64,000 bases of DNA from a virus. Made by a program: the position numbers and the translations under genes. Location of the stretch: the IMG/VR virus record IMGVR_UViG_3300012922_000001, positions 1-64,000 of that record. One strand, 5' to 3'. Within the stretch, counting starts at the first letter, position 1. Each line of letters starts with the position of its first letter. The notes beneath the pieces were generated by a model that had not been told where the DNA came from, ran no database searches, and saw only the letters and a program-made list of their open reading frames with translations. Positions 3,964 through 35,968 of this stretch are shown in pieces.

Positions 3964-6020
3964 GCGCCGCCGCGCAGTGGCAGGATTATGTCGAGCCGAA
4001 GACTAAAGGCGGCAAGGACGAAGAATGGGAAGATGCGGAAGGTACCGCACGCCCAGATTTCTCTCAGAATCCTCCTAGCGGGGTAACCAAGCCGCACATC
4101 AAAATGCACTACGATCCTGGCGGCGCGGAACCGGAGGGAATGCCTGGAGTTTCGGAAGGTGCGGGGCTCGCGGAAGGTCTTTCTGATTACGATAAGGCCA
4201 GCTTCGGCCAGATGGGTAGCGGCATATCCGATGTGGCGCATGGCCAGATTGCTAAGGGTGGCCATAAGATCATGTCTGGATTCGGCGCAGCCACTGTGCC
4301 CGCGCTGGCGCTTGGCGCGCCCGCAATGCTAGCTGCTCCTGCTGCCACTGGCTTGACTCTGGGAGGCGGGTATCTAGGCGGCAAGGTGGCGCGAGGGGTT
4401 ACTGAAGCTGCGGGGGGTTCTCTTGATCAGGCAGACTTTGCAGGCGATGTAGGCAACCTAGTTGGCGGTGCGGCTGGCCTGAAAGGACCAAAAGTCATCG
4501 GAAGCATGATGGATAGTATGGGAATTAAATCTCCACCAATCATGCAACGCGCTGCTCAGAAACTTGTTGCTCCGATGGTCTACGAGAACGTAGGTGAAAC
4601 GGCCCGTGATCGCACGCTGGGAGCAGTTCCTGAGCGCGGTATTGTGAATGAAGGTCATGTCGGCACCAAAACTCAGCTTGTGGGCAAGATGGATACTCGC
4701 ATCGGTGAGTTGAAGAATGCGGCGAACCAGATCCTCGACAATCACCCAAACTCGCGCCAGCTAATCAATGCCGAACCGATAGTGGACTCCGTAATCGACT
4801 CCGCCGTCAATGAAGCACAGAAGGGTGGCGAGAGCCCCGCGCGCCTTGAAGCGCTGCGAACCGCGCTCAAGACCAAGTATGGCAAGATGCAAGGCACACC
4901 GCGGGAAATGAACGACTTGAAGACGGATATTCAAGATCAGGCCATGAATCGAGGGGCCTACAAGAACACTCAACCACAGGAAGCAAGCGTATCGCGGGCG
5001 CTGGGCCAAGTCGCCTCTAGACTCCGTGCGGCCGTCGATGAAAAAGTCCCTGAAGCCGCTCAGATCAATCAACGCATTCAGGATCAGATTGATGCTCGTT
5101 CTGGCATCCAGAAGAACATCGACAAAGCCCGCGGCGAAGACATCTTCAAGGAAACGGCCAGCAACACTAGCGGACCATTCGGAAAGATTGCACAACGGAC
5201 GCTTGGATCCGCTCCCGTCCGCACCGGTCTAGCACGCATGTTGAATTTCGGCCACACGCAGGGCGTGCCTGAAGTTGCGCCCTATCAAGGTCCGCAGATC
5301 GCTGGCTTATTGCCTGCGAAACCTTCGCCACTTGGTCCGTCCACGGCAACTGGTCCACTGAGCGCACCGCCTAGTACCGTCCTTGAGAATCCAGCGGTCG
5401 GCCATACCAGAGCTGAACGCTTAGGTCTCATGCTGCCAGAACACGCCACGCCTGGCCCGACACCGATGGGACCTTCTACGATGACCAATCCGTATAGTCC
5501 AGCGCCAGCCTATGACGTAGGGACGGCTCCAGTACGTAAAGGTCTCTTGCTTCCCGAGCGTGCCGGTTCGCCGCACAACCTAGCACCGACGATGATGGGT
5601 GGAGCAGAAGGATTCCCCGGGTATGGGCCAGAGGGTCCGCATTATGCGCGACCGATGCAGACAGAGCGTCCCTATCAGCAGGAATCGGCGCAAGAGTTCG
5701 AACGCCGCGGGGCTTCGCGTAGTGCCGAAGAAGACGTGAAAACAGATATGGCCAATCATGCTCGGCAAGTCATTCATGATCCAAACTCGACCTATGAGCA
5801 GAGAGTTCAGGCCCTCAAGGAATTGCAAGATGCTACGGTCGGGCCTGCGAATGCCGAAAATATAGGCGCAAGAGCGCAGGCTGGGCTCTCTCGAAAGATG
5901 TCGCTGAAGCGGCCAGAAGTGGAAACCCCCACAGAAACTCGTAAAGGCGAGAAAGAATTCAGCCCGGAAGAGAGACTGGCGGAACGTAAGCGTCAGGCTG
6001 CTCGCGCACGAGGAAAGTAA
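3960..6020 (+). CDS. large internal virion protein candidate
   Basis: 686 aa from the ATG at 3960 (ATGA overlap with the upstream stop). It has a Gly/Ala hydrophobic segment (GAATVPALALGAPAMLAAPAATGLTLGGGYLGG) and a Pro-rich region with a repeated GL(M/L)LPE(H/R)A motif. Confidence 0.5.
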   Translation: MSAAAQWQDYVEPKTKGGKDEEWEDAEGTARPDFSQNPPSGVTKPHIKMHYDPGGAEPEGMPGVSEGAGLAEGLSDYDKASFGQMGSGISDVAHGQIAKGGHKIMSGFGAATVPALALGAPAMLAAPAATGLTLGGGYLGGKVARGVTEAAGGSLDQADFAGDVGNLVGGAAGLKGPKVIGSMMDSMGIKSPPIMQRAAQKLVAPMVYENVGETARDRTLGAVPERGIVNEGHVGTKTQLVGKMDTRIGELKNAANQILDNHPNSRQLINAEPIVDSVIDSAVNEAQKGGESPARLEALRTALKTKYGKMQGTPREMNDLKTDIQDQAMNRGAYKNTQPQEASVSRALGQVASRLRAAVDEKVPEAAQINQRIQDQIDARSGIQKNIDKARGEDIFKETASNTSGPFGKIAQRTLGSAPVRTGLARMLNFGHTQGVPEVAPYQGPQIAGLLPAKPSPLGPSTATGPLSAPPSTVLENPAVGHTRAERLGLMLPEHATPGPTPMGPSTMTNPYSPAPAYDVGTAPVRKGLLLPERAGSPHNLAPTMMGGAEGFPGYGPEGPHYARPMQTERPYQQESAQEFERRGASRSAEEDVKTDMANHARQVIHDPNSTYEQRVQALKELQDATVGPANAENIGARAQAGLSRKMSLKRPEVETPTETRKGEKEFSPEERLAERKRQAARARGK

Positions 6021-6030
6021 AAGGAGGCTT

Positions 6031-6714
6031 ATGCCCGCATACAACACTAATCCGCAGACCAAGCCCGCTGTACAGACCGCCGTCCCTGGCCTGCCGTGCT
6101 ACTTCTGGGGATCGCTCAATCGCCTCGTTGCGCCGACGCGCATGACTCTGATCAGTGGGTCGATCCTGACGAATGTGGCCACGATTGTCGCTCAGGTCAT
6201 CGAAGGCAATATTCCGGTGGTTGGCCAATTGATCACAGTGATTGGCTCCAATTCCAATTTCAGCGTGACGAACGTGGCCATTGCTACGGTATCAGCGGCT
6301 TTGGCTCCCGACACAGGCGTCTACACGATCACCTACGCCAAAACGGCGAGCAACCAGCCTAGCGTTCCCCTGACTGGGCCAGCGATTGCACCGCAGATTG
6401 AAATCGGGGAAACATTGGCTAACGGTGCTTCAATTCCATTCGCTCTCCAGTCCAACATTGGACCTAACAACGGAATGGATATCCGTGTCGATGTTACGTT
6501 CCCGACGATTCCAACCACAATGAATGTGGATGTGCAGACGGCAATGGTTGACCTTGATTCAGAGTATGTGATTTTGGGCACTGTGTCTTCGGTCGCTGGC
6601 AGTACCGTGACTGGACAGTCTCAGATATTCACTGACGTCCGAGCAAATTTCATCCGGTTAAACAACACTACCTTGGCTGGATCTGGAAAAATCATCGGCA
6701 AGTTGCTGGTGTAA
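6031..6714 (+). CDS. structural protein (fibre adaptor/baseplate-like candidate)
   Basis: 227 aa with a strong SD (AAGGAGG) 5 nt upstream. It lies immediately before the fibre genes. No motif recognised. Confidence 0.45.
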   Translation: MPAYNTNPQTKPAVQTAVPGLPCYFWGSLNRLVAPTRMTLISGSILTNVATIVAQVIEGNIPVVGQLITVIGSNSNFSVTNVAIATVSAALAPDTGVYTITYAKTASNQPSVPLTGPAIAPQIEIGETLANGASIPFALQSNIGPNNGMDIRVDVTFPTIPTTMNVDVQTAMVDLDSEYVILGTVSSVAGSTVTGQSQIFTDVRANFIRLNNTTLAGSGKIIGKLLV

Positions 6715-6727
6715 GCGAGGCTCACTT

Positions 6728-8650
6728 ATGAAAAAAATCTTGTTGCCATTAGTGCTATTGCTGACGGGCATAGCGTCGGGACAAATCACCCAGGCGAACG
6801 TGTTTCAATTCCGCTTCCAGCCTGCGGCACAGCATAATCCTCCTGCGAATTCTGCCTATCTCTACGTCTTCAACAACTCTCTTCAGTGCTTGCTCCCAAG
6901 TGGAGCAAGCTGCCTAGCAGGAGGTGGTAGCGGCACGGTGACGAATATTGCCACGACGGCTCCTCTCGGTGGAGGGCCGATTACCACAACTGGAACGCTG
7001 ACTTGTACGACATGCGCCACAACTACGAACGGCGGAGCGTTGACGGCAACAAATCCCATGCGCATCAGCGCGGCTGGAGTGATTGATATTCTGGGTACCG
7101 GGCAAGTGGCTGCCTCTGTGATGCCAGCCCTGACTGGAGACGTTACATCGTCGGCGGGCACGGTCGCGACTACGGTTGGCCAAATCTCAGGTGCGGCAAT
7201 TCCAACTTCTGCTTTCTTTGTTGGCACGAACTCCTCGAAACAATTGATTGCGGCTCAACCGTTTGTGACCAATGCGCAGACGACGACTTATCAGGCAGTG
7301 GCTGCGGATTTCACGGGCTGTAAGACGATCACAGTCGCGTCGGGGACGTTCACGGTCACCTTGGTCGCGTCGGGGACTCAACCGGCGAGTGGTCAATGCA
7401 TAAACGTGGTCAATTACGGTTCTGGAGTTGTGACGATTGCCCGATCTGGGCAGAACATCAACGGCGCGGCGGCTAACTTGACGCTAAATGCTGGTTCTGC
7501 ATCGGCGCCTACGAGTGTCACGATTACTTCAGATGGGACAAACTATTTTGCCAGCGTCGACGAGGGTACGGTAGGTACAGTCACCAGCGTGGCTACCACA
7601 TCTCCGATCACTGGTGGAACGATTACCGGGTCCGGAACGCTTGCTTGCGCTACTTGCGTCACGAGTGCGGCTGCTCTGACGAGCAATGCTGTGGTTCTTG
7701 GAGGCGGTGGCCAAGCAGCAGCTACCAACACAGCCTTCACCACGAACGGCACCACGACTCTGACGGTCGGAGTTGCTGCTGGTGGAAATGGCATCCTTGC
7801 GCTGGCTGGGAACACTTCAGGAACCGCAACGCTGACAGCCCCTGCCGTAGCGGGTACTGCTGGCAATCCTGTTTTAGCTTCCAATGCTCTCCAGCTTCCC
7901 GATGGCACACAAGCCCTACCTGCCTCACGCTTGACCACCAGCGCAACAGGCTGGTGGTATGGTTCCAGTGTCCCAGCACATATCTTTGGCACGACTACCA
8001 CCGATCATATTGGTTTTAAGACGAACGGAACTCAGCTTGGGATGAATTCTACGGGCGCTCTCACTTTTGGCAGCTCTAGCACCTCATTGAACGCCGCGAA
8101 CATGAACGCAGATACGGCGATTTCTCGTCTCGCCGCTGGCATTCTGGCTGTGGGAGTAAGCGCAACGTCAGGTAGTAAGACTGGACTGCTCCAATCTGGC
8201 ATGTCCGTATTCGTAACTGCGAACTTCACGACTTCCGGTGTCGGCACGGCGCTCGAAGCGATCACTGGCCTGACAATCACCGTTCCGGCAGTCGCAGCCA
8301 ATTGGACTTTCCATGCCCACTTGGCCTACTCCCAAGCGGTTGGCACTGCCGCTGTAGCCTTCGGCATTCAGGCCGTGACAAATAATCCTACAAACTGCTT
8401 TGCTACTGGTGAGATGTTCACGGCAGCCGGTACGGTCATTACCGGAACATTAGCTACCCTCACCACTACTACAGCTACGAATGTCGTCTCTGGGACTCCG
8501 GGCGCAACGGCGACGAACAACGTTGTGGACCTCTACGGAACTTGTGAGCTTGCGGCTTCGGCGAACACGATTCGCATTCTGACCTCGACCGCGACCGCCG
8601 CCGACACAGTCACGATTCTGCGTGGCAGTTACTTTGGCTTTAATCCCTAG
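6728..8650 (+). CDS. tail fibre-like protein with signal-peptide-like N-terminus
   Basis: 640 aa dominated by Thr/Gly/Ala/Ser with repeated GT..T strings. The N-terminus MKKILLPLVLLLTGIASG/Q has n-h-c signal peptide organisation. Confidence 0.55.
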   Translation: MKKILLPLVLLLTGIASGQITQANVFQFRFQPAAQHNPPANSAYLYVFNNSLQCLLPSGASCLAGGGSGTVTNIATTAPLGGGPITTTGTLTCTTCATTTNGGALTATNPMRISAAGVIDILGTGQVAASVMPALTGDVTSSAGTVATTVGQISGAAIPTSAFFVGTNSSKQLIAAQPFVTNAQTTTYQAVAADFTGCKTITVASGTFTVTLVASGTQPASGQCINVVNYGSGVVTIARSGQNINGAAANLTLNAGSASAPTSVTITSDGTNYFASVDEGTVGTVTSVATTSPITGGTITGSGTLACATCVTSAAALTSNAVVLGGGGQAAATNTAFTTNGTTTLTVGVAAGGNGILALAGNTSGTATLTAPAVAGTAGNPVLASNALQLPDGTQALPASRLTTSATGWWYGSSVPAHIFGTTTTDHIGFKTNGTQLGMNSTGALTFGSSSTSLNAANMNADTAISRLAAGILAVGVSATSGSKTGLLQSGMSVFVTANFTTSGVGTALEAITGLTITVPAVAANWTFHAHLAYSQAVGTAAVAFGIQAVTNNPTNCFATGEMFTAAGTVITGTLATLTTTTATNVVSGTPGATATNNVVDLYGTCELAASANTIRILTSTATAADTVTILRGSYFGFNP

Positions 8651-8677
8651 GAGGATCATGCGAAAACTGCTATGGCT
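8647..8677 (+). repeat. junction cassette copy 1 (stop-SD-start-signal peptide)
   Basis: CTAGGAGGATCATGCGAAAACTGCTATGGCT matches 11714-11744 at 26 of 31 positions by my alignment. The TAG is the stop codon of the upstream gene. Confidence 0.7.
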
Positions 8678-11600
8678 ACTGCTGATCTCCTCGGTCGTCT
8701 TCATTCCCTTAGCCTATGGGCAGACGCATGTCGCACCTGCTCTTGATCTGCCCAATACGTTCACTGGGCCGAATACTTTCACGAACGTGCTTACGTTGTC
8801 AGGTTTGACCGATGGATGCCTGACTGTGGCTTCCGGCATCGTTACCTCTTCGGCGGGTCCTTGCGGCGGTGGCGGAACTCCAGGTGGATCGAATCAACAG
8901 ATTCAATTCAATAACAATGGGGTCTTCGGCGCTGCGGCTGGACTGACTTCTGACACTTCCGGAAATGTTCTGATGCCGGGGACACTGGGAGTCACCGGTC
9001 AGGTCAATGGGACAACTGCCGGATTCACTGGCAATGTTTCAGCCCTAAGCTTCACTACAACCGGTGGCGGAGCGATGCACGTTCATACCGCCTTCGGTGC
9101 CACCCCAGCAACGCCGCTCGCAGGACAGAATGGAATTACTTTCGCAAATGACGGAAGCCTCCAGTGTTATCAGAATGGTGGGGCTGTGGGTAATTGCTTT
9201 GTTCCTGGTGTTGTGATCAATCCTGCGATCTCGCAAAGCATTGTCCAACCTTCAGTCGGTCGGCCTTCTGAGGGAACGTCCTTCGACGCCAACGTCTTCG
9301 CGCAGGTTCGTTACAATGACGCCCTCCAGAAGCAGTTTCCACTCTTCCCGGCAGGGACTATTTCGGTCGGTGTGAATACGATCACGATCAACGCCGTGCG
9401 CGGCATCAGCACTTATTCCTGTGTCAGTCCCGGAACAGGCTGCGCGAACACTTTTGGCACGCGAGGCACAACCCAGTATCTCCGCATCGCTGGAACTGGC
9501 ACTCCAGAGCAAGTAAAAATTGACGGCACGAATTGTGTAGGAGCGAACACTGGCACCTGCACAATCACCTTCACGGCGGCGAATACGCATAGCGCCGGGT
9601 ACACAGTCAGCAGCGCCACCGGGGGAATCATGGAGGCGCTGGTCGATTCCTACAGCCTCTCCTCGAATAATCCTGTAGGCAGCCGGACCATCGCCTGCAG
9701 CCCCTATCCTGAAAATGGCCACTACATTATTTATGCTCAGATCGTTGTGGATGATCTGCCTGCGACGAACTCTCCGCAGACCTTTCTAGAAGGAAATGGT
9801 TGCGTCCTTGAAGATGCCGTCTCGGGCGCTCCGATGATCAAGTTGAACAGCAATGCGGTTCATGCAACCATCGAGAATTTCACTTTTGCGACGTTAGTCG
9901 GAATCGGGAGAGCGGCGAATGGGACACAAGTTTTCGTCTACGACCAATCCCAGTTGATGCACTTCACCCGTAACCACTTCGCTCTTCCCGCCAACGGAAA
10001 TGCGGGCACCGATGTAGTGGATACTGTAGTCGAAGTTAACGCCGACCAAAACGCGACCATCGACCTTAATGATTTTGAAGGTGTGCCGATGAAGTGCGAC
10101 AGCACCTGGTGTGGCCCGATCATCTATGGAGATGCGGTCTCGAACGCGGCCATCGGAATCATTAACGCCAATTACTTCTCCACCAATCAAGACCCATTCA
10201 AATGGGATTCCGGCAACGGCGTATCCTTCGCTAACAATGTGTTTCAGAACTGGATTCACTACCCATATAAGTACAAAGGTGGCCTCCTTGCCCCAGCGAA
10301 TCAAGGAGGTAATTATTACGAGGGCAATTGTAGCCTCATTAACCCTGACTTTATAGACGTTGCCCATAGCAGTACCGGGGCGGGATACTCCTGTAACACA
10401 GGCCCACAAGTAGAGACTTCCGGATCACAGACGGAATATTCTCCTTTTCAGGATAGGAATGGCGCAGGATTAGCGCACCGCTTCACGGCCACCGGAGCCA
10501 ATGTCTATACCTACTACATCGTTGGGCATTCTGGGACGAGCCGGACACGTCCTCTATTCATCGGGGATGCAGCCACAGACGGAACCACCAATTTCAATGT
10601 GTTCTATCTCAAGTTCGGCGCGGATACTTACGATATTCTGCGCAGTGGACCGGCAGTCGGGGATGGTACCGACACCTCTCCGTTTGGCACGGCGAATTGG
10701 GCTGTAGCTACAGGCCTAGTCTGCTCCGCGAATCCATGTTTTTATCAGGAGACGTTCGCTGCGCCTACGTCTTACAATGTCTCCACCGACAGCGTGACCG
10801 TCACCTATACTCCGCCGATTGACTACTGGCCCGTTCCTCTCTTTATCCACGGAAGCTCCACATCGCCATCGACCTACCGAGGCCCCGTCACCACATTTGT
10901 GAATGGATCGGCAGTAACCGGCGCAGTCGGCTACTATGATGGAACTTTCACTTCCGAGAGCGGCGGCGAGGAACAACTTACCGGAATGCATGTTCTTCAT
11001 ATGGGGCCTTTGCAGAATGGCGGAACCAGCCATAACCCAGGAGCGATGATTCTTAATCCTGATATACAGACCAACAGCTTCACCGGGTTCAAGGGCCGCA
11101 TCAACATGCCCAGCTACTCAGTCCCGAACAACGTCTACCTCTCTAACCATGACAACATACTTTACCAGACGTTTGATCCTGATTCGGCCAAGACGATGGC
11201 GACTCCAGGACACCAACCGAAGCTTAACGCTGCCGGGACGGACTGCGGCATGGGGTACGACAACAATGCCAGCTATCTGATGTTCATGTGTGGGAATCCG
11301 ATTAGTTTCTATGTGGCACACAAGCCGGACTCTGGCACGTCGCCTGTTTTCCAATTACTTACTACTGGGGGAAAGACGCGTCTGCAATTTACCTCGACAT
11401 TGGCCACGGGAACGGCTCCCTTTGCAATCACCAGCACAACGCCAGTACCGAACCTTTCCGCCACGCCAACAACCTACAATGCGGCCGGAACGCAGCAGAC
11501 AAATGCTCACATCGTGGAAGGAACATGTACGCTCGGAACGAGTTGCGCAATTACTCTGACCGGTGCAGCCGTCTTCACCGGGGCTGCCAGCTACGCCTGT

Positions 11601-11717
11601 ACTGCGGAAGACACAACGGCAATCGCAGCGACACGAGTCGTGCAAGCATCAGGCAGTTCGGTGACATTCACGGGCACTGGGACTGATGTGCTGGTTTATC
11701 ACTGTGTGGGCAACTAG
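8658..11717 (+). CDS. tailspike-like protein, right-handed beta-helix (depolymerase candidate), signal-peptide-like N-terminus
   Basis: 1019 aa from the ATG at 8658 (SD GGAGG at 8650-8654). Asn/Gly/Val-rich repeats (NATIENFTFA..., NAAIGIINANYFS..., GVSFANNVFQNW) are typical of pectate-lyase-fold beta-helices. N-terminus is MRKLLWLLLISSVVFIPLAYG/Q. Confidence 0.55.
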   Translation: MRKLLWLLLISSVVFIPLAYGQTHVAPALDLPNTFTGPNTFTNVLTLSGLTDGCLTVASGIVTSSAGPCGGGGTPGGSNQQIQFNNNGVFGAAAGLTSDTSGNVLMPGTLGVTGQVNGTTAGFTGNVSALSFTTTGGGAMHVHTAFGATPATPLAGQNGITFANDGSLQCYQNGGAVGNCFVPGVVINPAISQSIVQPSVGRPSEGTSFDANVFAQVRYNDALQKQFPLFPAGTISVGVNTITINAVRGISTYSCVSPGTGCANTFGTRGTTQYLRIAGTGTPEQVKIDGTNCVGANTGTCTITFTAANTHSAGYTVSSATGGIMEALVDSYSLSSNNPVGSRTIACSPYPENGHYIIYAQIVVDDLPATNSPQTFLEGNGCVLEDAVSGAPMIKLNSNAVHATIENFTFATLVGIGRAANGTQVFVYDQSQLMHFTRNHFALPANGNAGTDVVDTVVEVNADQNATIDLNDFEGVPMKCDSTWCGPIIYGDAVSNAAIGIINANYFSTNQDPFKWDSGNGVSFANNVFQNWIHYPYKYKGGLLAPANQGGNYYEGNCSLINPDFIDVAHSSTGAGYSCNTGPQVETSGSQTEYSPFQDRNGAGLAHRFTATGANVYTYYIVGHSGTSRTRPLFIGDAATDGTTNFNVFYLKFGADTYDILRSGPAVGDGTDTSPFGTANWAVATGLVCSANPCFYQETFAAPTSYNVSTDSVTVTYTPPIDYWPVPLFIHGSSTSPSTYRGPVTTFVNGSAVTGAVGYYDGTFTSESGGEEQLTGMHVLHMGPLQNGGTSHNPGAMILNPDIQTNSFTGFKGRINMPSYSVPNNVYLSNHDNILYQTFDPDSAKTMATPGHQPKLNAAGTDCGMGYDNNASYLMFMCGNPISFYVAHKPDSGTSPVFQLLTTGGKTRLQFTSTLATGTAPFAITSTTPVPNLSATPTTYNAAGTQQTNAHIVEGTCTLGTSCAITLTGAAVFTGAASYACTAEDTTAIAATRVVQASGSSVTFTGTGTDVLVYHCVGN

Positions 11718-11744
11718 GAGACGCATGAGAAAATTGCTATGGCT
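11714..11744 (+). repeat. junction cassette copy 2
   Basis: CTAGGAGACGCATGAGAAAATTGCTATGGCT. See copy 1. Confidence 0.7.
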
Positions 11745-14457
11745 GACACTTTTATCCTCAGCCTTTGCCCAATTCAATGGGACGTTTAGCGGATCCGGAG
11801 TGCTGACCACTGATCCCTTGGGCCCTCCGGTAATCATTTCCTTCTCCTGCGTTTCCCCGATCACGAGCGGCCAAACAAGCTCTTGCAATTGGACGGTTAC
11901 CGGTCAAAGTGTTGCGCCAGGGTCCATCGCAATCAACAATGGCCTCTATTCATGTGGCAGTCCGTGTCCTAGTATAGACAATGCGACAACACCTGCTTCG
12001 ACTACGACAACCACCTATACCTTAACCGCTTCCAATTCCACGGCGACTGTGAATGTTCCAGTTACGGTAGTTGTTGGATTGACTCCCACGGCCACGATTA
12101 CTCCTGCTCCGACAGCGATTGATCTCAATACCTGCGGACTGGCTTGCTCAACGACCGTCTCCTGGACGGCAACGAATCAGGATACGATTGACATCCTGCG
12201 AGATTCGGATGGCGCTATCAAGTTGCACTGCGTGGTCGCTTGCGGTGGCAGCGGGAGCTTTGTGGATAGCCCACTGACCACTACGACCTATCACATCACC
12301 GTAACCGCACTGGGAGGTGCCACGGTCACTACAACGTCCGTGCCGGTAATCGTGACGCCAGTCTCCGGCGGAGGATCTCCTTCTGATACGAACCGCTATG
12401 ATAACCCGAACAACACATGCAACGGCTTGGTCACCGATGGCGGCGCGGCACCACCGGATAATTGCTTCTATACGGCTCTGGTAGGGACGCCTTCTCCCGG
12501 GAAGACTGTGGCCATCCCGGCTGGTTGTTCATCGTTTCCGTGTGTAAACGATTTAGCCACTGTCTTCAACGGTGCTGGCGTGAGTTGCGGAGATACGATC
12601 ACCATGGCTGCCGGTGCGCTCTGGAATTATACTTCGACGCATACAGCCACGCTGAACTCAAAAGGCTGCGACAACGCGCACTGGATCACTGTTCGCACCT
12701 CAACTCCAGACGCCAGCCTTCCTGACCAGAATACTGAGATCACGCCATGCTGGGCCAACATCGCGAGCCTGCCTGGGCGACCGTCATTCTCATGTCCTTT
12801 TGGCGGGGCGGCCGCTCTTGTTCCAACTATTTCCATTGACGGATCAAACGCCTTCAATATCGCTTGTGACCATTGCCGATTCATCGGAATACGCTTCACC
12901 ACTACAGCGTTCCTGCCGAACGGAACTACCCAACTCGTTAACATGACCGGAGCCAATCATGTCGTGTTTGACAGGATGCTCTACTCCGGCACGCCAACCG
13001 GGGACACACGGCGCGCGCTCGCGCTGAGTACGAGTCAATGGGTAGCCGTCATCAATTCCTACTTCTGGGATTTCCACTGCCATTCCGGCAATGCTTCACC
13101 CTGCAATCAATCTCAAACGATAGGGTTTGGGCTTGGTACGCAGACACTGGCTTCCCCTGCGACTCTCTGTCAAAAGGGTGTATCCGTCGTGCCCCCATGG
13201 TCTACAGGCTGTCCTGGGATCTATAAGTTCGTCAATAATTTCATGGAAGCAGCAGGCGAGAATCTATTCTCCGGCGGCGGTGGCGCCAACTATGTTCCAC
13301 CTGATATCGAGATCCGGCGCAACCACCTTTTCAAGCCGCTCTACTGGAATCAACTTTGTGCGTCCGATCTTGGATGTGGAACTCCGGGCGCCTACGTGAA
13401 TGGCTCGCCGATTGTCCTGACGAGCATTTTCAGAACGTCTAATTTGGTGGTTGCGGCGCTGCCTACACTGCCAACCGGTGTCACAACCGGTGGTCTCGCG
13501 ATCGTAACGTTCGCTGGTGTGAGTGATGCCTCTTTCAATGGCAGTTTCCAAGTCACAGTGTCAGGGTCCGGGCCTTACAGCTTGCGCTACGCAAAATCCG
13601 GTCCTGATACCGGTGTTCTGACTAGCGGAACGGCAATCATGCCACCGTTTGTGGTCATCAACTGCTTCGAACTGAAGAACGGCGTGCGCGTATTCTTCGA
13701 AGGGAATATCTGCGAGAACGGCTGGGGAGGTTTCAGTCAGCAGGGCTATGCCGTACTTCTCTCGCCCAAAAATCAGGTGGGCAACTGTCCGCTCTGCTAT
13801 GTCTCAGATGTAACAATGCGGTACTTTCCAATGACCGGATTCCCCGCATCGTTTCAGCTCGCAGAGTCGGTGGATCCCGGGTTTACTCCGGCGATCGGCC
13901 TCGAGCGAGTTTCGATTCATGATGTGGTTGCGGATGCCAATTTCACCGATGCGAACTCGAGCTCTTACGGGATTGAGATGACGTTCAATTGTGCGGCAGC
14001 CGCGGGCATGAACAATATCGTCTTCAATCATCTTTCCTTGGTCAAGGTCCTCAAGGGAGCTTGGCTGATGGGGACGCAGCAAGGCACCTGCAGCTTTCAT
14101 AACGTGACTTTCAACAACTCGATTATCGACGCTGGCACATTCCCAATGTCGGTGACGTCGACCGGAGACGGCTGCCAGCAATTGAACCCGGCGCATACCC
14201 CGCTCGGCATCTTCAATGCTTGCTGGACGCCGACCTATAACTTCTTGAAGAACGCGGTGACAACTTTCTCCGGGACTTGGCCAACCCCTCTGACAACTTT
14301 TCCTAGTACCTTAGGGGTATACACCAGTTACAATTCTGGTAATGGCGGGGACTACCGCGTGACTCTAGCGTCAGGGCTTCAGAACGCTGGGACGGATGGG
14401 AAGAATGTCGGGGCTGATATCAACAAAATTGCTACCGAGACGGCTGGGATCCAATAA
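11725..14457 (+). CDS. second tailspike-like beta-helix protein, signal-peptide-like N-terminus
   Basis: 910 aa from the ATG at 11725. It has a Thr-rich Ig-like N-terminal part followed by beta-helix-like repeats (NAFNIACDHCRFIGIRFTT, ANHVVFDRMLYSG, YKFVNNFMEAAGENLFSGGG). N-terminus is MRKLLWLTLLSSAFA/Q. Confidence 0.55.
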   Translation: MRKLLWLTLLSSAFAQFNGTFSGSGVLTTDPLGPPVIISFSCVSPITSGQTSSCNWTVTGQSVAPGSIAINNGLYSCGSPCPSIDNATTPASTTTTTYTLTASNSTATVNVPVTVVVGLTPTATITPAPTAIDLNTCGLACSTTVSWTATNQDTIDILRDSDGAIKLHCVVACGGSGSFVDSPLTTTTYHITVTALGGATVTTTSVPVIVTPVSGGGSPSDTNRYDNPNNTCNGLVTDGGAAPPDNCFYTALVGTPSPGKTVAIPAGCSSFPCVNDLATVFNGAGVSCGDTITMAAGALWNYTSTHTATLNSKGCDNAHWITVRTSTPDASLPDQNTEITPCWANIASLPGRPSFSCPFGGAAALVPTISIDGSNAFNIACDHCRFIGIRFTTTAFLPNGTTQLVNMTGANHVVFDRMLYSGTPTGDTRRALALSTSQWVAVINSYFWDFHCHSGNASPCNQSQTIGFGLGTQTLASPATLCQKGVSVVPPWSTGCPGIYKFVNNFMEAAGENLFSGGGGANYVPPDIEIRRNHLFKPLYWNQLCASDLGCGTPGAYVNGSPIVLTSIFRTSNLVVAALPTLPTGVTTGGLAIVTFAGVSDASFNGSFQVTVSGSGPYSLRYAKSGPDTGVLTSGTAIMPPFVVINCFELKNGVRVFFEGNICENGWGGFSQQGYAVLLSPKNQVGNCPLCYVSDVTMRYFPMTGFPASFQLAESVDPGFTPAIGLERVSIHDVVADANFTDANSSSYGIEMTFNCAAAAGMNNIVFNHLSLVKVLKGAWLMGTQQGTCSFHNVTFNNSIIDAGTFPMSVTSTGDGCQQLNPAHTPLGIFNACWTPTYNFLKNAVTTFSGTWPTPLTTFPSTLGVYTSYNSGNGGDYRVTLASGLQNAGTDGKNVGADINKIATETAGIQ

Positions 14458-14466
14458 GGGGGAGCG

Positions 14467-14946
14467 ATGCGGACGAAAAACATGCTGAAACTTGGCGGAT
14501 TCTGCGTAGCGATTATCGTTGGAGTTGTGAGTTTGGCCTATGCCGCGGGAACCCAACTGCAGGGGCCGGTGACGGTTTTGGGCGATCCAGCTAACCCAGG
14601 CGTGTTGCGCGCAGAGTTTCAGATTTCCAAGGCCTGCACAAATGCGACGAGCGTGGCGACTACGGCAACGACCCAAGCCACAGTCGTGGTCTGCTCCGAC
14701 GGTAAAGGAAGCCTCACGCTGTCCATGAACGGCTCTACGCCGGTCAGCATCGGCGGAGTAGGTCCGGTGGGTCCTCAAGGTCCGGCTGGGCCCACAGGGG
14801 CGCCTGGGGCGGTAGGAGCGCCGGGCCCGGCAGGCGTGCAGGGTCCTCAAGGGATTCCAGGGACAATGAATGGGCAGACATGTTCGGCGGCATCGTGGTC
14901 GATTGGAAGTGCTGGGCTGACTTTGGCGAATATCACCTGCAAATAA
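14467..14946 (+). CDS. collagen-triple-helix-repeat protein with N-terminal signal/anchor
   Basis: 159 aa. N-terminal hydrophobic segment LGGFCVAIIVGVVSLAYA, then 13 uninterrupted G-X-Y triplets (GGVGPVGPQGPAGPTGAPGAVGAPGPAGVQGPQGIPGTM). Confidence 0.7.
   Translation: MRTKNMLKLGGFCVAIIVGVVSLAYAAGTQLQGPVTVLGDPANPGVLRAEFQISKACTNATSVATTATTQATVVVCSDGKGSLTLSMNGSTPVSIGGVGPVGPQGPAGPTGAPGAVGAPGPAGVQGPQGIPGTMNGQTCSAASWSIGSAGLTLANITCK
14752..14868 (+). repeat. G-X-Y collagen-like coding repeat (13 triplets)
   Basis: Direct reading of aa 96-134 of the 14467 ORF. Confidence 0.8.
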
Positions 14947-14956
14947 GGAGCTAATC

Positions 14957-15259
14957 ATGAGCAGTTTTACCGCTTGGTTTACTTTGGACCATGTCGAGCA
15001 TGTTGGGTTGGCTATTCCGGTCGTGGCATCAGTGCTGCACACCTTCCTGCCGCCATGGGAGGCCTTTGGAGACTTTCCGACACTCCAGAAGTACTACAAG
15101 TTGTTCGTTTATTGTGTCGGCTACGTGGGCCTCAATGCCCGCAGCACGGTCTGGAAGTCACTGTCCACCAACTCTGGCCAGCAGCCCTCGGTAGCCGCTC
15201 TTAATGGCTCAGCTACGCAGCCTGTCCCGCCACCCTCGCAGCCACCCACTCAACCCTAA
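14957..15259 (+). CDS. holin candidate (small membrane protein)
   Basis: 100 aa with two or more hydrophobic segments (VGLAIPVVASVLHTF, LFVYCVGYVGL). It lies directly upstream of the endolysin. Confidence 0.4.
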   Translation: MSSFTAWFTLDHVEHVGLAIPVVASVLHTFLPPWEAFGDFPTLQKYYKLFVYCVGYVGLNARSTVWKSLSTNSGQQPSVAALNGSATQPVPPPSQPPTQP

Positions 15260-15513
15260 TGCCAGAGAACCTCACCGAGCTAGGCGTCGGGGCAGCCGTG
15301 GCACTCCTGATCCTCGACAGGGTATTTAACTTCCTGCGGAATGTCCGCAATAACCACGGGAAGGGTAAGACCCCTAGCGCCGGGGAGCTACCACCGGACT
15401 ATTGGGATCGCCGTTATGACAAGCTGGAGGCGATGCACATGACCAACCTCGAGCTGCTCAAGGAAGTGAAGATCCGGGTGGAGGCGTTAGTCAGATGGAA
15501 GGGGGATAGCTGA
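15259..15513 (+). CDS. lysis accessory membrane protein (holin/antiholin or spanin-like candidate)
   Basis: 84 aa with one N-terminal TM (LGVGAAVALLILDRVF) and a charged coiled C-terminus. It has overlap coupling on both sides. Confidence 0.4.
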   Translation: MPENLTELGVGAAVALLILDRVFNFLRNVRNNHGKGKTPSAGELPPDYWDRRYDKLEAMHMTNLELLKEVKIRVEALVRWKGDS

Positions 15514-16199
15514 TGGACTCAATTAGCGAACGACGGCTCTCGGAGGTTCATCCGCGACTTGCCAGCCTGATTCGTCAACTCGCCGGACTGCACGCTGCAG
15601 AGTTCCCCGACAACGCCCTCCGCGTGACGCAGGGGCTGCGGACGTGGGCAGAGCAGGATGAACTCTACGCCCAGGGACGGACGGCACCTGGCGAGATCGT
15701 AACCAAGGCTCCTGCCGGACACTCACAACATAATTTTGGCCTTGCCATTGATATTGTACCGCTGGATAATCATGGTGTTCCTATATGGGACAACACGCTA
15801 CCAGTTTGGAAGAGGCTAATAGCCCTAGCTCAAGGGTTAGGACTCGAATCAGGGGCTATTTGGAAAACACTGAAGGATTATCCTCATCTACAATTAACGG
15901 GCTCTTGGCCCGTCTCGCCAGATGACGCTCAACGATCAGCTTATGCTTCAGGTGGAATCGGAAAAGTCTGGGCTGATTCGGGTCTGCCTAGCATGCCCGA
16001 CGACATTCAAGACAGTCTGAGCGGCGTCCTTCTCAGAAATATTGCTCTAAGCGTTGTTACAAGCGCGAGTGGAAACGGCTCAAGGTGGGTTGGCAACCAC
16101 CTGCTGAGATTTTCTGTGTTATCTGCACCACAGTCTTTACTCGTGATCCATTCCATCCAAGAGGGCAGACTTGTAGTAAGTCCTGCTCAAGGCGTTTAG
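15513..16199 (+). CDS. endolysin, peptidase M15 (VanY / L-alanyl-D-glutamate peptidase-like)
   Basis: Zn-ligand motifs SQHNFGLAIDI and DYPHLQL, preceded by LRVTQGLRTWAEQDELYAQGR. The last ~70 codons overlap the HNH gene, look non-globular, and may be read-through. Confidence 0.8.
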   Translation: MDSISERRLSEVHPRLASLIRQLAGLHAAEFPDNALRVTQGLRTWAEQDELYAQGRTAPGEIVTKAPAGHSQHNFGLAIDIVPLDNHGVPIWDNTLPVWKRLIALAQGLGLESGAIWKTLKDYPHLQLTGSWPVSPDDAQRSAYASGGIGKVWADSGLPSMPDDIQDSLSGVLLRNIALSVVTSASGNGSRWVGNHLLRFSVLSAPQSLLVIHSIQEGRLVVSPAQGV

Positions 16200-16630
16200 A
16201 ATATAGGACTCATCGAGGTGCTTACTTTATACGGGCGTCGGCATGGGCTAAGGCTAACCCATCCGCTGTTAAGCAGTATCAGCAGACATCAAGGAATAAG
16301 AAGCCTGATTTATATAAAACTATCCGTCGAGTAAAAGAGCAGCGCCGTAATGCCAATATCAAGAAGGCCCCAGGTAATGGTGTTACTCGACAGGAATGGG
16401 ATTCAATCCGAACTAGCCAAAGAGATCATTGCTGGTGGTGTGGCCAAGAGAAGCCTCTTCACATGGATCATGTTTATCCGATCGTAAAGGGAGGCGCGCA
16501 CTCGCCGGAGAATATCGTTGGGGCCTGTCAATCCTGTAATTCTAAAAAGCGTGATCGCCTCTGGCCGAGAGAGAATGGGGCGCTGTATGAGGCTACTGGG
16601 GTGCCTACGGATGGCGTGGTGAACGCTTAG
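16085..16630 (+). CDS. HNH homing endonuclease
   Basis: HMDHVYPIVKGGAHSPENIVGACQSCNSKK is a classic HNH motif. The region is low in GC. A further Zn-ribbon-like stretch lies in frame upstream of the first available start codon (see finding). Confidence 0.75.
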   Translation: MGWQPPAEIFCVICTTVFTRDPFHPRGQTCSKSCSRRLEYRTHRGAYFIRASAWAKANPSAVKQYQQTSRNKKPDLYKTIRRVKEQRRNANIKKAPGNGVTRQEWDSIRTSQRDHCWWCGQEKPLHMDHVYPIVKGGAHSPENIVGACQSCNSKKRDRLWPRENGALYEATGVPTDGVVNA

Positions 16631-16827
16631 GCCGCCTCCAGCGCATCCCTTCTGACAATAGTGCACACCGGGCCTTCCGGCAGCACCCTCCAGCCCTCAG
16701 GATGGAATGTGACGTACTCGGGGGAGTCGTAGTAGACCATGTCGTCCACAATCGTGCCTAGCTTCCCGTTGAGTGCTCCATGGTAGGCGTTGTTGGTGCC
16801 GATGAATTTGAATTGCATGATTACCAC
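16627..16827 (-). CDS. hypothetical protein
   Basis: Track ORF of 66 aa, the last gene of the leftward operon. It is convergent with the HNH gene, with a 4-nt overlap. Confidence 0.4.
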   Translation of the reverse strand: MVIMQFKFIGTNNAYHGALNGKLGTIVDDMVYYDSPEYVTFHPEGWRVLPEGPVCTIVRRDALEAA

Positions 16828-16987
16828 TTTCTTATCTTGTCAGCTGACCGGATTGGTTACCGGCCAGTGAGCTACCGTCGCTCTCAACAGCAAGAGCCTT
16901 GCGGTTCTTACTGACCCGAGAATTGAACTCGGTCAGCTCACAAGACAGAAAAACCAGGCCACCAGCCTCAGCCAGTGGCCCTCCCTG

Positions 16988-17419
16988 CTACTGGTATTTG
17001 CCAACTACGTTGATTGAAGAAAACACCGTAGACGTGTTGATGACACCGACACATAAGCCAGCCCCTACAGGCCCAAGAATTGAGAATGTAGCAGGCGTAA
17101 CGTACTTATCTGACGGTTGCCCAACAGCAGGATTCACCGCCAAGCTAGTTCCCCACATAGCCAAGTTCGGCGGTCCGCACGTGCTCTGATTATAGAGATA
17201 TGCCTGCGTGGCGAGATAGGTCGTTGCCGAAGCGGATGCAATAGAAATGTCGATTCCTGTGATGTTGATAACACATCCGGAAATGGCCGGAATTGGCAGC
17301 GACGGGGTGTTTGGGTAAATAGCCGTCAGATGGAATGGGCCGATTGCGGCACAGGTAGCATGGGCAGGCAGGGAACAGACGGTGGCGAGCAACAGGGCGA
17401 GCAACAGTTTCATCTTCAT
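16988..17419 (-). CDS. exported Cys-containing protein
   Basis: 143 aa. MKMKLLLALLLATVCSLPAHA/T is a signal peptide. Confidence 0.55.
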   Translation of the reverse strand: MKMKLLLALLLATVCSLPAHATCAAIGPFHLTAIYPNTPSLPIPAISGCVINITGIDISIASASATTYLATQAYLYNQSTCGPPNLAMWGTSLAVNPAVGQPSDKYVTPATFSILGPVGAGLCVGVINTSTVFSSINVVGKYQ

Positions 17420-17433
17420 GTCTTCGTGGCCTC

Positions 17434-17670
17434 CTAAGCCACTGGATTGGTGAGTACAACATCACATTGTCCACTCACTTCATTGAGTTTCCGAGAAGTG
17501 GCTGAGACAAAGTGGACATCGCAGAGAACGCGTTGCTCAGACCATCGCAGGGTGCCCTTACTCCAGCACCCTTCTTGGTCACACTTCGCTTCTCCATAGA
17601 ACCTAGAGCCACGATAGTGTGGGTGACCATCTACTTTGTCCACGAGTCCTCCTAGTTTGCAGCAAGCCAC
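17434..17670 (-). CDS. hypothetical Cys/His-rich protein
   Basis: Track ORF of 78 aa with uncertain start. It overlaps the upstream gene's end. Confidence 0.3.
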   Translation of the reverse strand: MACCKLGGLVDKVDGHPHYRGSRFYGEAKCDQEGCWSKGTLRWSEQRVLCDVHFVSATSRKLNEVSGQCDVVLTNPVA

Positions 17671-17852
17671 GCCTGAGCGTGGGCAATCGTCTCGTCATCA
17701 GCCTTGTCAGAGGCTAGGATGGCAGCGGCGATGTTGGCCTTCTCATCACTGGAGAGGCTCATAATCGACTTGAGCGCCAGAAACTCCTTGACCACGAGCG
17801 GGCCGAGGCCGGCGATCAGGCCTACGATCTCACTGATTAACTGAGGATTCAC
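17652..17852 (-). CDS. hypothetical small protein (one hydrophobic helix)
   Basis: Track ORF of 66 aa (IVGLIAGLGPLVV), with an ATGA-type overlap with the lipoprotein gene. Confidence 0.35.
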   Translation of the reverse strand: MNPQLISEIVGLIAGLGPLVVKEFLALKSIMSLSSDEKANIAAAILASDKADDETIAHAQAWLAAN

Positions 17853-18316
17853 TGGGTACCTGCTTTCACTTCTTTGATGGTTGCGAGGACGGTATCGGCC
17901 AGAGAATAAATATTGTCCAAGTCCATCTTGAACGTCTGCTGGCTTCGTGGGTTCTTAACGCCCAGCGCTCCGCTGGCAATCGCCGCATCGCCCTCTGCCT
18001 TGATCTTATCCAGCAGAGCCGCGATGGAGTCGATGTTTGCCTGAGTGACCACGCTCTGCCCGAGAATCGCGGTGATCTGCTTGTGTAGTTCAGCCACATG
18101 CTCGGTGAAGGCAATGATCGGCTTGGCATTGGCGGATGTGAGCACTCCAGTTGTAACGGCCAGCTCCGCCCCCTGTTCGATAGCGTCATTGGCCTGGGCA
18201 AAGGCTGCGTTGTAAGTTGTGGCACGTTCCTTCGGCGTGACTGTTCCCGAAGCACGATGGATACAGCCAACCGTTGCCAGTGTGAGTACGAGGGGTAACA
18301 ATAGTTCTTTCTTCAT
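17849..18316 (-). CDS. lipoprotein, helical
   Basis: 155 aa. MKKELLLPLVLTLATVGC has a lipobox-like TVG/C. The remainder is Ala-rich and helical. Confidence 0.55.
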   Translation of the reverse strand: MKKELLLPLVLTLATVGCIHRASGTVTPKERATTYNAAFAQANDAIEQGAELAVTTGVLTSANAKPIIAFTEHVAELHKQITAILGQSVVTQANIDSIAALLDKIKAEGDAAIASGALGVKNPRSQQTFKMDLDNIYSLADTVLATIKEVKAGTQ

Positions 18317-18327
18317 AGTCCTCCTGA

Positions 18328-18525
18328 TTACTGTTCTTCTGCGTCATCCGCCAGCTTCTCTAGCCGTTGGCGTGTGTAGGATTTGTCTTGTTCGGTGACG
18401 ATGCCCGCGAGCGTTACCACATCCTTGGCCACCTCCACTGGAAGCATGACCGTATTCACTACTGTTCGAGCAAGTTGTCCAAATAGTTTCATCGCTGTCT
18501 CCATGAAACCCCCGTACAGCCCCAC
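18328..18525 (-). CDS. hypothetical protein
   Basis: Track ORF of 65 aa. The start may be the internal METAMKLF. Confidence 0.35.
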   Translation of the reverse strand: MGLYGGFMETAMKLFGQLARTVVNTVMLPVEVAKDVVTLAGIVTEQDKSYTRQRLEKLADDAEEQ

Positions 18526-18580
18526 TGATAGAAGCCCGACGAAGCTGTGGCACCCCAGCCTGACTGCACGGGGAGGTTGG

Positions 18581-19165
18581 TTACGCCGCTGGCTTGCCCT
18601 GACTCAGCACAAATGCGACAGGCGCAGGAGGCGGAGGCGGCGCAAGAATCGGTACAGTTGCCGAACCCGTGATTACCGTGCTATCCGGCAATGTCGCGCT
18701 CGTTGTGAGTGAGAAGCTGGAACCTGGCGTAGCGGTCGCAGCCGCAGTCACCACAGCCGACCTGCCGTCATCCGCAGCAACCACATTCACGGTCGTATCG
18801 CTGGAAACCCAGCTTGGCGTTGAACTCCCCGCTGGTAGGGCATCAGCGTTGCCGCTGGCGTCCACAGGCGAGGCGAAGAAGGTATCTGAGGCTCCGGGTT
18901 GTAGCCCGGTGATCGTTCCTGCTAGGGGCATATTCTCTCCTTGGGTGATGATTATTCTTACTGGGGTGGGCTCGTCATTGGCCAGAAGTTGGTCGATTTT
19001 GATGCCCAAATCCGCTACAGCCTTGATCTGGAAGATGTTCTGCCGGATGATGACCAGAAGCAGCCGCCCATTCGTGCGCTCGGCTCCCTCTAGTTCCTCC
19101 GTCTCCTCTTCCAGCCTACGGATATCGCGTTCGATCTGTTGCTCGTCGTCACGGATATTGCCCAT
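18581..19165 (-). CDS. coiled-coil protein with bacterial Ig-like (Big_2-like) domain
   Basis: 194 aa. An acidic coiled-coil N-terminus is followed by a beta-rich segment (ITGLQPGASDTFFASPVDASGN ... TTVNVVAADDGRSAVVTAAATATPG) resembling Big_2 domains. Confidence 0.45.
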   Translation of the reverse strand: MGNIRDDEQQIERDIRRLEEETEELEGAERTNGRLLLVIIRQNIFQIKAVADLGIKIDQLLANDEPTPVRIIITQGENMPLAGTITGLQPGASDTFFASPVDASGNADALPAGSSTPSWVSSDTTVNVVAADDGRSAVVTAAATATPGSSFSLTTSATLPDSTVITGSATVPILAPPPPPAPVAFVLSQGKPAA

Positions 19166-19222
19166 CAGTTGTGACTCCTTGGACCCTAGTCTAACCGTTC
19201 AGCGCTTGAAAACAAGGGTTTA

Positions 19223-35957: not shown

Positions 35958-35968
35958 TCTAAAGCACC

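Follow-up and report, generated by a model that had tools for sequence, protein, structure and literature searches.

In the textbook account, tailed bacteriophages (phages) are assembled in the cytoplasm throughout, and one would not expect a receptor-binding protein to be a substrate of the Sec translocon. The characterised tailspike and depolymerase enzymes are both made and attached to the particle in the cytoplasm. Phage accessory proteins that do depend on Sec are often encoded beside fibre or lysis genes and include Lom and Bor of phage lambda, Llp of phage T5, spanins and signal-arrest-release (SAR) endolysins, which are small envelope proteins. Here we describe four genes (genes 1–4) in a 64,000-nucleotide (nt) stretch of the viral record IMGVR_UViG_3300012922_000001 (hereafter the window) that lie where tail-fibre genes are expected and encode proteins beginning with predicted Sec signal peptides. 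The products of genes 1–3 differ from the Lom, Bor and Llp type in being fibre or β-helix proteins of 640–1019 amino acids (aa).

Several described systems share part of this arrangement. The Q-rule refers to signals for signal peptidase I (SPI) with a glutamine (Gln) at position +1 and has been described as specific to Bacteroidetes (PMC5837995, PMC10653852). Genes 1–3 resemble it in their basic n-region, hydrophobic h-region, small residues at −3 and −1 and the Gln exposed by predicted cleavage, but the hosts here belong to Terriglobia, not Bacteroidota, and gene 4 has an alanine at +1; we treat this as resemblance rather than membership, because the hosts fall outside the group for which the rule was described. 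Phages of Porphyromonas gingivalis carry five Q-rule genes of unknown function whose products are predicted SPI substrates, which has been read as use of host secretion (PMC10367356). The proteins described here are likewise phage-encoded predicted SPI substrates with Gln at +1, but they are large fibre or depolymerase proteins in the fibre position, with the feature spread across their families and joined to even cysteine (Cys) numbers. The MAT proteins of the cellular predator Bdellovibrio are cell-encoded, fibre-like modular trimers that act outside the cytoplasm, all with a signal peptide followed by a conserved domain of ~130 aa and often with an S74 chaperone-protease (PMC10769870); genes 1–4 also encode fibre-like modular proteins that begin with a signal peptide, but they stand in a phage late operon, and Pfam searches found none of the MAT hallmarks.

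Two groups of β-helix enzymes are also close. Gene 3, and probably gene 2, shares the β-helix of tailspikes and depolymerases (the HK620 tailspike, CBA120 TSP3 and those of Klebsiella) and a place at the end of the virion module, whereas the canonical fibre and β-helix relatives that we retrieved have no signal and few, unpaired Cys. By Foldseek, gene 3 also has the fold of secreted β-helix enzymes such as an alginate lyase and RbmB of Vibrio cholerae, which its PDB entry names as a Vibrio-polysaccharide lyase; it differs from these in being phage-encoded, in its place in a late operon and in additional β-rich (possibly immunoglobulin-like) repeats in its N-terminal part.

Predicted signal peptides on proteins in the fibre position

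Open reading frames (ORFs) were called by us, and about 89 of them were scanned for their N termini. Directly before the lysis cassette lie four co-oriented and nearly contiguous genes, listed here with their Shine–Dalgarno (SD)-like motifs:

6728–8650, + strand, gene 1, 640 aa; GAGG at 6717–6720, ATG at 6728
8658–11717, + strand, gene 2, 1019 aa; AGGAGG at 8649–8654, ATG at 8658
11725–14457, + strand, gene 3, 910 aa; AGGAGA at 11716–11721, ATG at 11725
14467–14946, + strand, gene 4, 159 aa; GGGGGAG at 14458–14464, ATG at 14467

In all four, the ATG stands 8–13 nt from the previous stop codon and the SD-like motif 3–7 nt upstream of the ATG. The gene calls are our own, and longer ORFs could start upstream for gene 2 (GTG 8622) and gene 3 (ATG 11686), with no effect other than a longer n-region. 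It is nevertheless very improbable that mistaken start codons, or hydrophobic N termini lined up by chance, account for the series, given the motifs and their spacing, the database calls for genes 1 and 2 (P0073 and P0001), which match ours in sequence and length, and the recurrence of the feature in hundreds of independently assembled homologues. Wrong starts as such were rejected on the SD motifs and the independent calls. Signal-less isoforms from internal starts were also rejected, as none of the four genes has an SD-backed start right after the hydrophobic segment.

The predicted signals are as follows:

6728–6781, + strand, predicted signal peptide of gene 1, MKKILLPLVLLLTGIASG/Q, 18 aa
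8658–8720, + strand, predicted signal peptide of gene 2, MRKLLWLLLISSVVFIPLAYG/Q, 21 aa
11725–11769, + strand, predicted signal peptide of gene 3, MRKLLWLTLLSSAFA/Q, 15 aa
14467–14544, + strand, predicted signal peptide or signal anchor of gene 4, MRTKNMLKLGGFCVAIIVGVVSLAYA/AG, 26 aa, with the longest h-region of the four

These are exactly the N termini quoted in the initial annotation of this DNA, and the basic n-region, hydrophobic h-region and A/G-x-A/G c-region that it described are all present at the SD-backed starts. The n-regions are positively charged (MKK-, MRK-, MRK- and MRTKNMLK- for genes 1–4) and are followed by uncharged hydrophobic stretches of 12, 17, 12 and ~20 residues (overall range 12–21, with gene 4 at the long end), whose best 8-residue Kyte–Doolittle means are 2.1–3.4. 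The predicted cleavage sites, ASG/Q, AYG/Q, AFA/Q and AYA/A, have A at −3, G, G, A and A at −1 and no Pro at +1; genes 1–3 have Gln at +1 and gene 4 has A. As scored with a crude heuristic of our own (hydropathy, charge and the −3 and −1 residues) and read by eye, the four N termini thus appear to agree with type I signal peptides in all the sequence criteria that could be tested. Lipoprotein (signal peptidase II) signals were rejected for genes 1–4, which have no lipobox with Cys at +1, and so were Tat signals, as no n-region contains the RR of the S/T-R-R-x-F-L-K consensus. The fibres of related prophage loci (see below) share an n-region motif, M(F/L)DARRPxGRLFY, in which DARRPxGRLFY likewise fails the Tat consensus.

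The same scan flagged three small minus-strand ORFs and one weak case (35783–36094) besides genes 1–4, and no head or other upstream virion-module ORF. At this background of ~8%, four consecutive flags would be expected at ~4e-5 per position, but the conservation in homologues argues more strongly against chance. Each of the 16 gene 2 homologues from the databases (41–86% identical, with one at 27%) has a hydrophobic core followed by [AGS]Q, different in sequence and alike in design (median length 21), and the same signal architecture with [AGS]Q is found in 4 of 4 close homologues of gene 3. For gene 1, 403 homologues were found; among the 110 full-length ones examined, 92 have the hydrophobic core, 84 of them with [AGS]Q. 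At E ≤ 1e-3, a gene 2 family profile retrieved 1557 cluster representatives. The 144 best new ones include 131 that start with M, and 112 of these 131 have a hydrophobic N terminus, the rest being mostly truncated-looking.

Altogether, the feature is conserved across more than 200 homologues in a family of hundreds of sequence clusters, and in the gene 1 family signal-bearing members greatly outnumber signal-less ones. The −1 residue is A, G or S in every family case counted, and ~90% of signal-bearing homologues have [AGS]/Q. Signal lengths have medians of 18–21, which fits signal peptides and not transmembrane (TM) helices. What is conserved across the families is the n-h-c architecture and the [AG]/Q junction, while the signal sequence itself drifts. 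By these comparisons the predicted signal is a family trait rather than a product of chance, and a hallmark of the fibre-type proteins of this phage group.

Cys numbers set the same proteins apart. The mature parts of genes 1–4 contain 10, 22, 32 and 4 Cys, mostly in close pairs (5, 11, 16 and 2 possible disulfides). Even numbers were found in 90 of the 92 signal-bearing gene 1 relatives, none of which has zero Cys (binomial p 9e-25), in 17/17 members of the gene 2 family and in 100 of the 112 gene 2 profile representatives (p 1e-18), with the reservation that the choice of cleavage site alters a few of these counts. As controls, window proteins without a signal show no parity bias (18 even, 24 odd, 10 zero), the clearly signal-less fibres of the gene 1 family have 3, 3, 3, 3, 3, 2 and 0 Cys, and canonical viral fibres with the GSNxQIQFNNNG motif of gene 2 have no signal and 0–4 Cys per 560–1700 residues. 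No sequence of the gene 2 alignment lacks Cys 293, 480, 485, 689 or 694, and at least 90% have Cys 301, which gives the conserved pairs 293/301, 480/485 and 689/694; gene 3 has Cys in common with its cellular homologues. An even Cys number is typical of secreted disulfide proteins, and we read the parity as that kind of signature.

Folds, sister phages and hosts

The domains identified in the four proteins are:

7640–8644, + strand, C-terminal receptor-binding-type domain of gene 1, aa 305–639
12382–14454, + strand, right-handed parallel β-helix of gene 3, aa ~220–910, mostly confident in the model
14755–14865, + strand, Gly-X-Y collagen-type repeat of gene 4, aa 97–133

Gene 1 has repeated fibre modules (GTVT(S/N)..PITxxGTLxCxxC), 10 Cys in its mature part and no Pfam, PHROG or PDB sequence match, and it shows no recognisable enzyme domain. 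Gene 2 combines a fibre motif (GGSNQQIQFNNNGVFG), a central probable β-helix and a small C-terminal domain with 4 Cys. Its AlphaFold2 model is poor (predicted local distance difference test (pLDDT) 47.7) and gave weak matches to PL3 pectate lyase and tailspikes, which are suggestive of a β-helix. Gene 3 (32 Cys) is laid out as a signal peptide, low-confidence β-rich (possibly Ig-like) repeats and the β-helix. In its model (pLDDT 71.6, predicted template modelling score 0.70), Foldseek recovered alginate lyase 6kfn (E 3e-5), AlgE4, galacturonidase, the HK620 tailspike and V. cholerae RbmB, with probability 1.00 to lyases and tailspikes, and the protein also resembles viral β-helix, tailspike and depolymerase models. 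The predicted fold of gene 3 is of the polysaccharide lyase or hydrolase type. Where the initial annotation had spoken of β-helix proteins, the term thus holds for gene 3, on the model and the Foldseek matches, and is only suggested for gene 2. Searches of PDB sequences with the gene 2 profile, gene 3 and gene 1 gave no matches. Gene 4 is a collagen-like minor fibre of 159 aa with 4 Cys in its mature part; its collagen tract scores 26.3 bits against Pfam Collagen, just below the cutoff of 27.2, and PHROG tail-fibre families match this tract only.

No anchor (particle-binding) domain is recognisable in genes 2 and 3, and in their AlphaFold monomers the N terminus is a short, isolated helix of low confidence, beyond which the chain is disordered. 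Close gene 2 relatives (P0002–P0016) vary in the region after the signal, which is conserved in the prophage clade; there, a conserved domain (..TTISDTVYRADGTPAGGTLLIS..) directly follows the signal and the downstream parts vary.

The closest phage contig, L066, encodes a gene 2 homologue 86% identical to that of the window. It also encodes a signal-less fibre of 467 aa (MSSFSNGSSGGGSGTVTS..., 3 Cys) whose last 335 residues are 88% identical to aa 305–639 of gene 1; in the related contig L064 the identity of this domain is 60%. In both contigs the fibre is followed by an ORF of 132 aa, which from its position alone is a possible assembly helper. The window has neither an L066-type fibre N terminus nor a counterpart of the 132-aa ORF, and its only copy of the binding domain is in the signal-bearing gene 1.

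The sister phages are mosaic relative to the window: the fibre genes, two membrane-protein genes and downstream ORFs (17849–18316 and 18581–19165) are common to L066/L064 and window positions 1–19200, and the upstream virion genes are dissimilar. In L066, the gene 3 signal peptide (17 aa, 71% identical) fronts a different mature protein, encoded by a 518-aa ORF, a hint that recombination may use the intergenic-plus-signal segment as a joint.

When one genome per GTDB species was scanned, 51 loci were found, almost all in Terriglobia (Terriglobales, Acidobacteriaceae and Ca. Sulfotelmatobacter), and we therefore place the host in Acidobacteriota. Many of these loci (L007, L011–L061) have one prophage-like arrangement, with an S24 repressor (26 loci), a DSPc dual-specificity phosphatase (30), a signal-bearing gene 2 homologue, a signal-bearing β-helix protein (β-helix protein in 22), a large terminase (16) and a portal (9). 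Their fibre genes lie upstream of the terminase gene and include a giant signal-bearing fibre of up to ~2400 aa, and one of their β-helix proteins adds a polysaccharide deacetylase domain behind the signal peptide. The major head protein gene of contig L009 is followed, ~3 kb downstream, by the signal-bearing genes. In the prophage homologues of L024, L032 and L045, the N termini are anchor-like rather than signal-like.

Gene 3 also has cellular relatives. About 40 Terriglobales homologues of ~620 aa have signal peptides or lipoboxes, and one of them (P0031; L062/L063) ends a Terriglobales polysaccharide-synthesis cluster with a sulfotransferase, an oxidoreductase, an epimerase, a Wzx-like flippase and a He_PIG protein. 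This protein is probably the cell's own matrix-processing enzyme and is a likely evolutionary source of the phage enzyme. The host homologues deviate from the [AG]/Q ending (ALA/AAPP), which is frequent in the signals of small, ordinary-looking host proteins. Among host-type signals of the Terriglobia loci (L011–L062), 57 of 136 have [AGS]Q in the c-region, and Gln makes up 13% of the residues after A or G and is the commonest +1 residue even with a Q-blind heuristic, all in a noisy set in which prophage and host genes are mixed and cleavage sites come from a crude heuristic.

Taken together, the conservation of the signal, the Cys parity, the secreted relatives of gene 3 and the host signals make export far likelier than an uncleaved packing helix, and the four N termini are very probably genuine, cleavable Sec and SPI signals. 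The initial annotation had remarked on such export signals as unusual for the fibre position, and its observation gains support from the homologues, the parity and the secreted or lipoprotein relatives of gene 3.

Lysis genes and other features of the window

The features adjoining the four genes, and the small ORFs flagged in the same scan or lying near them, are:

6031–6714, + strand, last signal-less ORF of the upstream virion module, 227 aa, 1 Cys, ending 13 nt before gene 1
14957–15513, + strand, two small membrane proteins, of 100 aa with two hydrophobic segments and of 84 aa with one N-terminal TM segment
15513–16199, + strand, endolysin, peptidase M15/VanY, without signal or SAR segment (Pfam, PHROG)
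16988–17419, − strand, small SPI-type ORF (MKMKLLLALLLATVCSLPAHA/T), 4 Cys in the mature part, predicted secreted
17849–18316, − strand, small lipoprotein-type ORF (..LATVG/C), single Cys in the lipobox, 67% identical in L066
23282–23743, − strand, small SPI-type ORF (MKYLSALLLAFVSLNASG/Q), 4 Cys, predicted secreted

Upstream of gene 1, three large low-complexity ORFs (2215–3963, 3942–6020 and 6031–6714) are signal-less, have 0–1 Cys and gave no family matches; the last of them has neither a Pfam nor a PHROG match. Within the four-gene block, a scan for promoters and terminators found none beyond shuffle expectation. A recent insertion of host genes was rejected, as these genes stand tightly packed in an operon and their G+C content (0.53–0.57) is like that found elsewhere in the window. 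Judged by their hydrophobic segments, the two small membrane proteins are candidates for a holin and a holin partner or i-spanin, and homologues of their genes adjoin the fibre genes in L066. The M15 endolysin, having no export signal, should need a hole-forming holin.

The minus-strand ORFs 16988–17419, 17849–18316 and 23282–23743 gave no Pfam matches. The first resembles the ORF at its position in L066, but weakly and below the threshold; the second is kept there although the upstream virion genes of that phage are unrelated to those of the window. Both may be of the Lom, Bor and Llp kind.

Pfam and PHROG searches with genes 1–3 and the adjoining virion ORFs yielded only the collagen tract, the M15 endolysin, a weak large-terminase match and GroEL. 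GenBank phage searches at the DNA and protein levels found no relatives of genes 1 and 2 or of two head-module ORFs (887 aa, 51738–54401; 455 aa, 56985–58352), and IMG/VR searches with single proteins found nothing or just a short fibre motif in common. Elsewhere the window encodes a weak large-terminase match (48564–50249), a Cpn10/GroEL pair (59284–61339), DnaB, a serine recombinase, a DNA methylase and several glycosyl- and methyltransferases; the terminase, GroEL, lysis and other genes identify it as a tailed-phage genome. The Cpn10 (GroES) and GroEL genes lie within the head-gene region. Four free-standing, homing-endonuclease-like nuclease genes are scattered through the late region (51243–51737, 58458–59294, 16085–16630 and 45957–46697), two of endonuclease VII type, one HNH and one GIY-YIG/NUMOD3, and the final ~115 nt (3′ end) of the endolysin ORF also belong to the HNH ORF. 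The serine recombinase (32864–33565, − strand) has Resolvase and Recombinase domains in just 233 aa; it suggests a temperate lifestyle, which would fit the abundance of related prophages.

An island at 39441–47593 encodes an N6/N4 DNA methylase, GT1-like, GT47/RXYLT1-like (weak) and GT2 glycosyltransferases and two S-adenosylmethionine (SAM) methyltransferases, none with a signal peptide; a further methyltransferase without a signal peptide (56259–56831) lies among the head genes. The initial annotation had offered, as one option, passage of the proteins through the periplasm for modification, with a possible relevance of the glycosylation island. Our data point to disulfides and possibly pyroglutamate as the modifications, and the link to the glycosyl/methyltransferase island (~39–48 kb) was rejected, as no evidence for it was found.

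Possible destinations of the proteins

Our leading explanation, held tentatively, is that the proteins are exported through Sec, fold oxidatively in the periplasm and dock on particles at lysis. Late in infection, the fibre and depolymerase proteins would pass through the Sec translocon. In the periplasm, cleavage at [AG]/Q would leave an N-terminal Gln that can cyclise to pyroglutamate, and the proteins would fold with many structural disulfides that could not form in the cytoplasm, where DNA-filled particles would be built as usual. The signal-less M15 endolysin would be let through by the holin, whose opening of the inner membrane would merge the two compartments; assembly would then end with the docking of the pre-folded fibres and depolymerases on the particles ('late arming'), and any surplus would be released as free enzyme. 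The gain would be host-recognition proteins stabilised by disulfides. Addition of fibres or tailspikes is normally the last step of assembly and works in vitro for several model phages, so that a shift to the moment of lysis should need little change. A broader form of this proposal, which we put forward with somewhat more reserve, is that a large clade of Terriglobia tailed phages ends virion assembly outside the cytoplasm, with Sec-exported proteins cut by SPI at [AG]/Q, capped by pyroglutamate, cross-linked by host Dsb in the periplasm, docked late and hardened by disulfides so as to survive long in acidic soil.

Given export, we regard attachment to the virion as evenly balanced. It is favoured by the receptor-binding domain that gene 1 has in common with the signal-less sister fibre and of which the window has no signal-less copy, by the tight packing of the genes between virion and lysis genes, by the position of the L009 genes downstream of the head gene, by the conserved post-signal domain with variable downstream parts, the usual layout of anchored fibres, and by the expectation that a binding domain without enzyme activity, if set free, would hinder adsorption of the phage itself by competition. 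Several observations weigh against late arming. L064 and L066 keep a signal-less fibre and the 132-aa ORF beside signal-bearing homologues of genes 2 and 3, so that in these phages the signal-bearing proteins need not be the receptor-binding proteins of the virion. Distant IMG/VR relatives of the gene 2 central domain (L067–L103) mostly share a signal-less N-terminal motif (..AAFPxxVATDAxLKVAxNxxQTTL..) and have no Cys parity, and a minority (L068, L082, L094, L103 and L088) have a signal with A/Q instead; the domain containing ..FPxxVATDAxLKVAxN.. looks like a canonical particle-binding domain that is replaced in the signal-bearing forms. Gene 3 resembles secreted enzymes of cells, and the virion module is unannotated and may contain an unrecognised, signal-less receptor-binding protein. 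Parity points to a need for oxidation and not to its site, and the disulfides could form after release into oxic soil. In the searchable literature we found no precedent for a tailed phage gaining fibres from the periplasm or for signal peptides on fibres or tailspikes.

The most substantial competing explanation, doubtful but to be taken seriously, is that the proteins, in line with another option of the initial annotation, are exported polysaccharide depolymerases and adhesins, soluble or associated with the envelope, which extend the lysis cassette, with the true receptor-binding protein encoded elsewhere. They might degrade or remodel the thick exopolysaccharide of the infected cell and its neighbours, freeing progeny and exposing receptors, or destroy or mask the receptors of the dying cell. 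The signal-peptide and parity evidence serves this explanation equally, and release is the topologically simplest fate of a Sec substrate. It also draws on the fold of gene 3 with its RbmB and alginate lyase matches, on the secreted and lipoprotein cellular homologues, one of them in a polysaccharide-synthesis locus, on the prophage protein that joins a β-helix and a polysaccharide deacetylase behind a signal, on the classic signal-less fibre that the sister phages keep, on the N-terminal domain of the distant canonical relatives that the signal-bearing forms lack, and on the position of the genes next to the lysis genes. Gene 1 fits it poorly, however, as it consists of fibre modules and a domain 88% identical to that of a virion-type fibre, with no recognisable enzyme domain and no signal-less copy in the window, and its release would set free binding domains in competition with the phage's own adsorption. 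Nor does it readily account for the collagen-like fibre of gene 4, for the anchored-fibre layout with C-terminal parts that extend proteins to ~2400 aa, or for the great excess of signal-bearing over signal-less members in the gene 1 family.

It is unlikely that the proteins are not exported. In that case the hydrophobic segments would be uncleaved helices for docking, trimerisation or membrane tethering, or something would block export during infection, and assembly would be cytoplasmic with oxidation after release, as the textbook topology would have it; disulfides could indeed form after lysis, the h-region of gene 4 (~20 residues) is long enough for a membrane anchor, and L024, L032 and L045 have their anchor-like N termini. 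But a packing helix should conserve its sequence, and only the n-h-c physics, the small −3 and −1 residues and the Gln at +1 are kept, at median lengths of 18–21 that are unlike those of TM helices. Near-perfect parity is hard to square with proteins of 10–32 Cys that fold correctly in a reducing cytoplasm and are oxidised later. The cellular homologues of gene 3 are secreted or lipoproteins, signal-less relatives have the same fibre modules with no hydrophobic N terminus, which indicates that the helix is not needed for fibre structure, and the AlphaFold monomers place a short isolated helix before a disordered stretch. The docking or anchor helices offered as one option in the initial annotation are thus disfavoured. 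Slightly less likely again is display on the surface of a lysogen, in which fibre-like adhesins and enzymes expressed from the prophage would aid the host or block superinfection. Relatives do occur in 51 GTDB species genomes, and where phage genes are recognisable (16–30 loci) they stand in a prophage-like locus next to the S24 repressor and DSPc phosphatase; the serine recombinase means that the phage may be temperate. Bdellovibrio MAT proteins are fibre-like trimers exported by cells (PMC10769870), and the Q-rule proteins of P. gingivalis phages have been proposed to modify the host surface (PMC10367356). Against this, the genes run in the same direction as the virion and lysis genes and almost abut them, and no promoter or terminator inside the block exceeds shuffle expectation, which indicates late lytic expression; the proteins would also have to cross the outer membrane by a further pathway, for which no signal was seen, and neither S74 nor another MAT hallmark was found with Pfam.

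Acidobacterial phage–host pairs are available in culture, the Tunturi viruses, in a paper that mentions neither signal peptides nor fibres (PMC11924767). If these isolates encode signal-bearing fibres, the destination of such proteins is directly testable there. A signal peptide may lead annotation pipelines to set proteins aside as non-structural, the proteins described here could be a starting point for engineering stable depolymerases, and the Q-rule of Gln at +1 may extend beyond Bacteroidota. The family combines a host-type export signal with the Cys signature of secreted proteins, in phages and prophages of a very abundant soil phylum. If its members are not on virions, up to 8 kb of late genes would be spent on exported matrix-degrading enzymes and fibres for egress, which would be new too. 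If they are on virions, phage morphogenesis would have a periplasmic branch, one that would be categorically new should late arming prove true.

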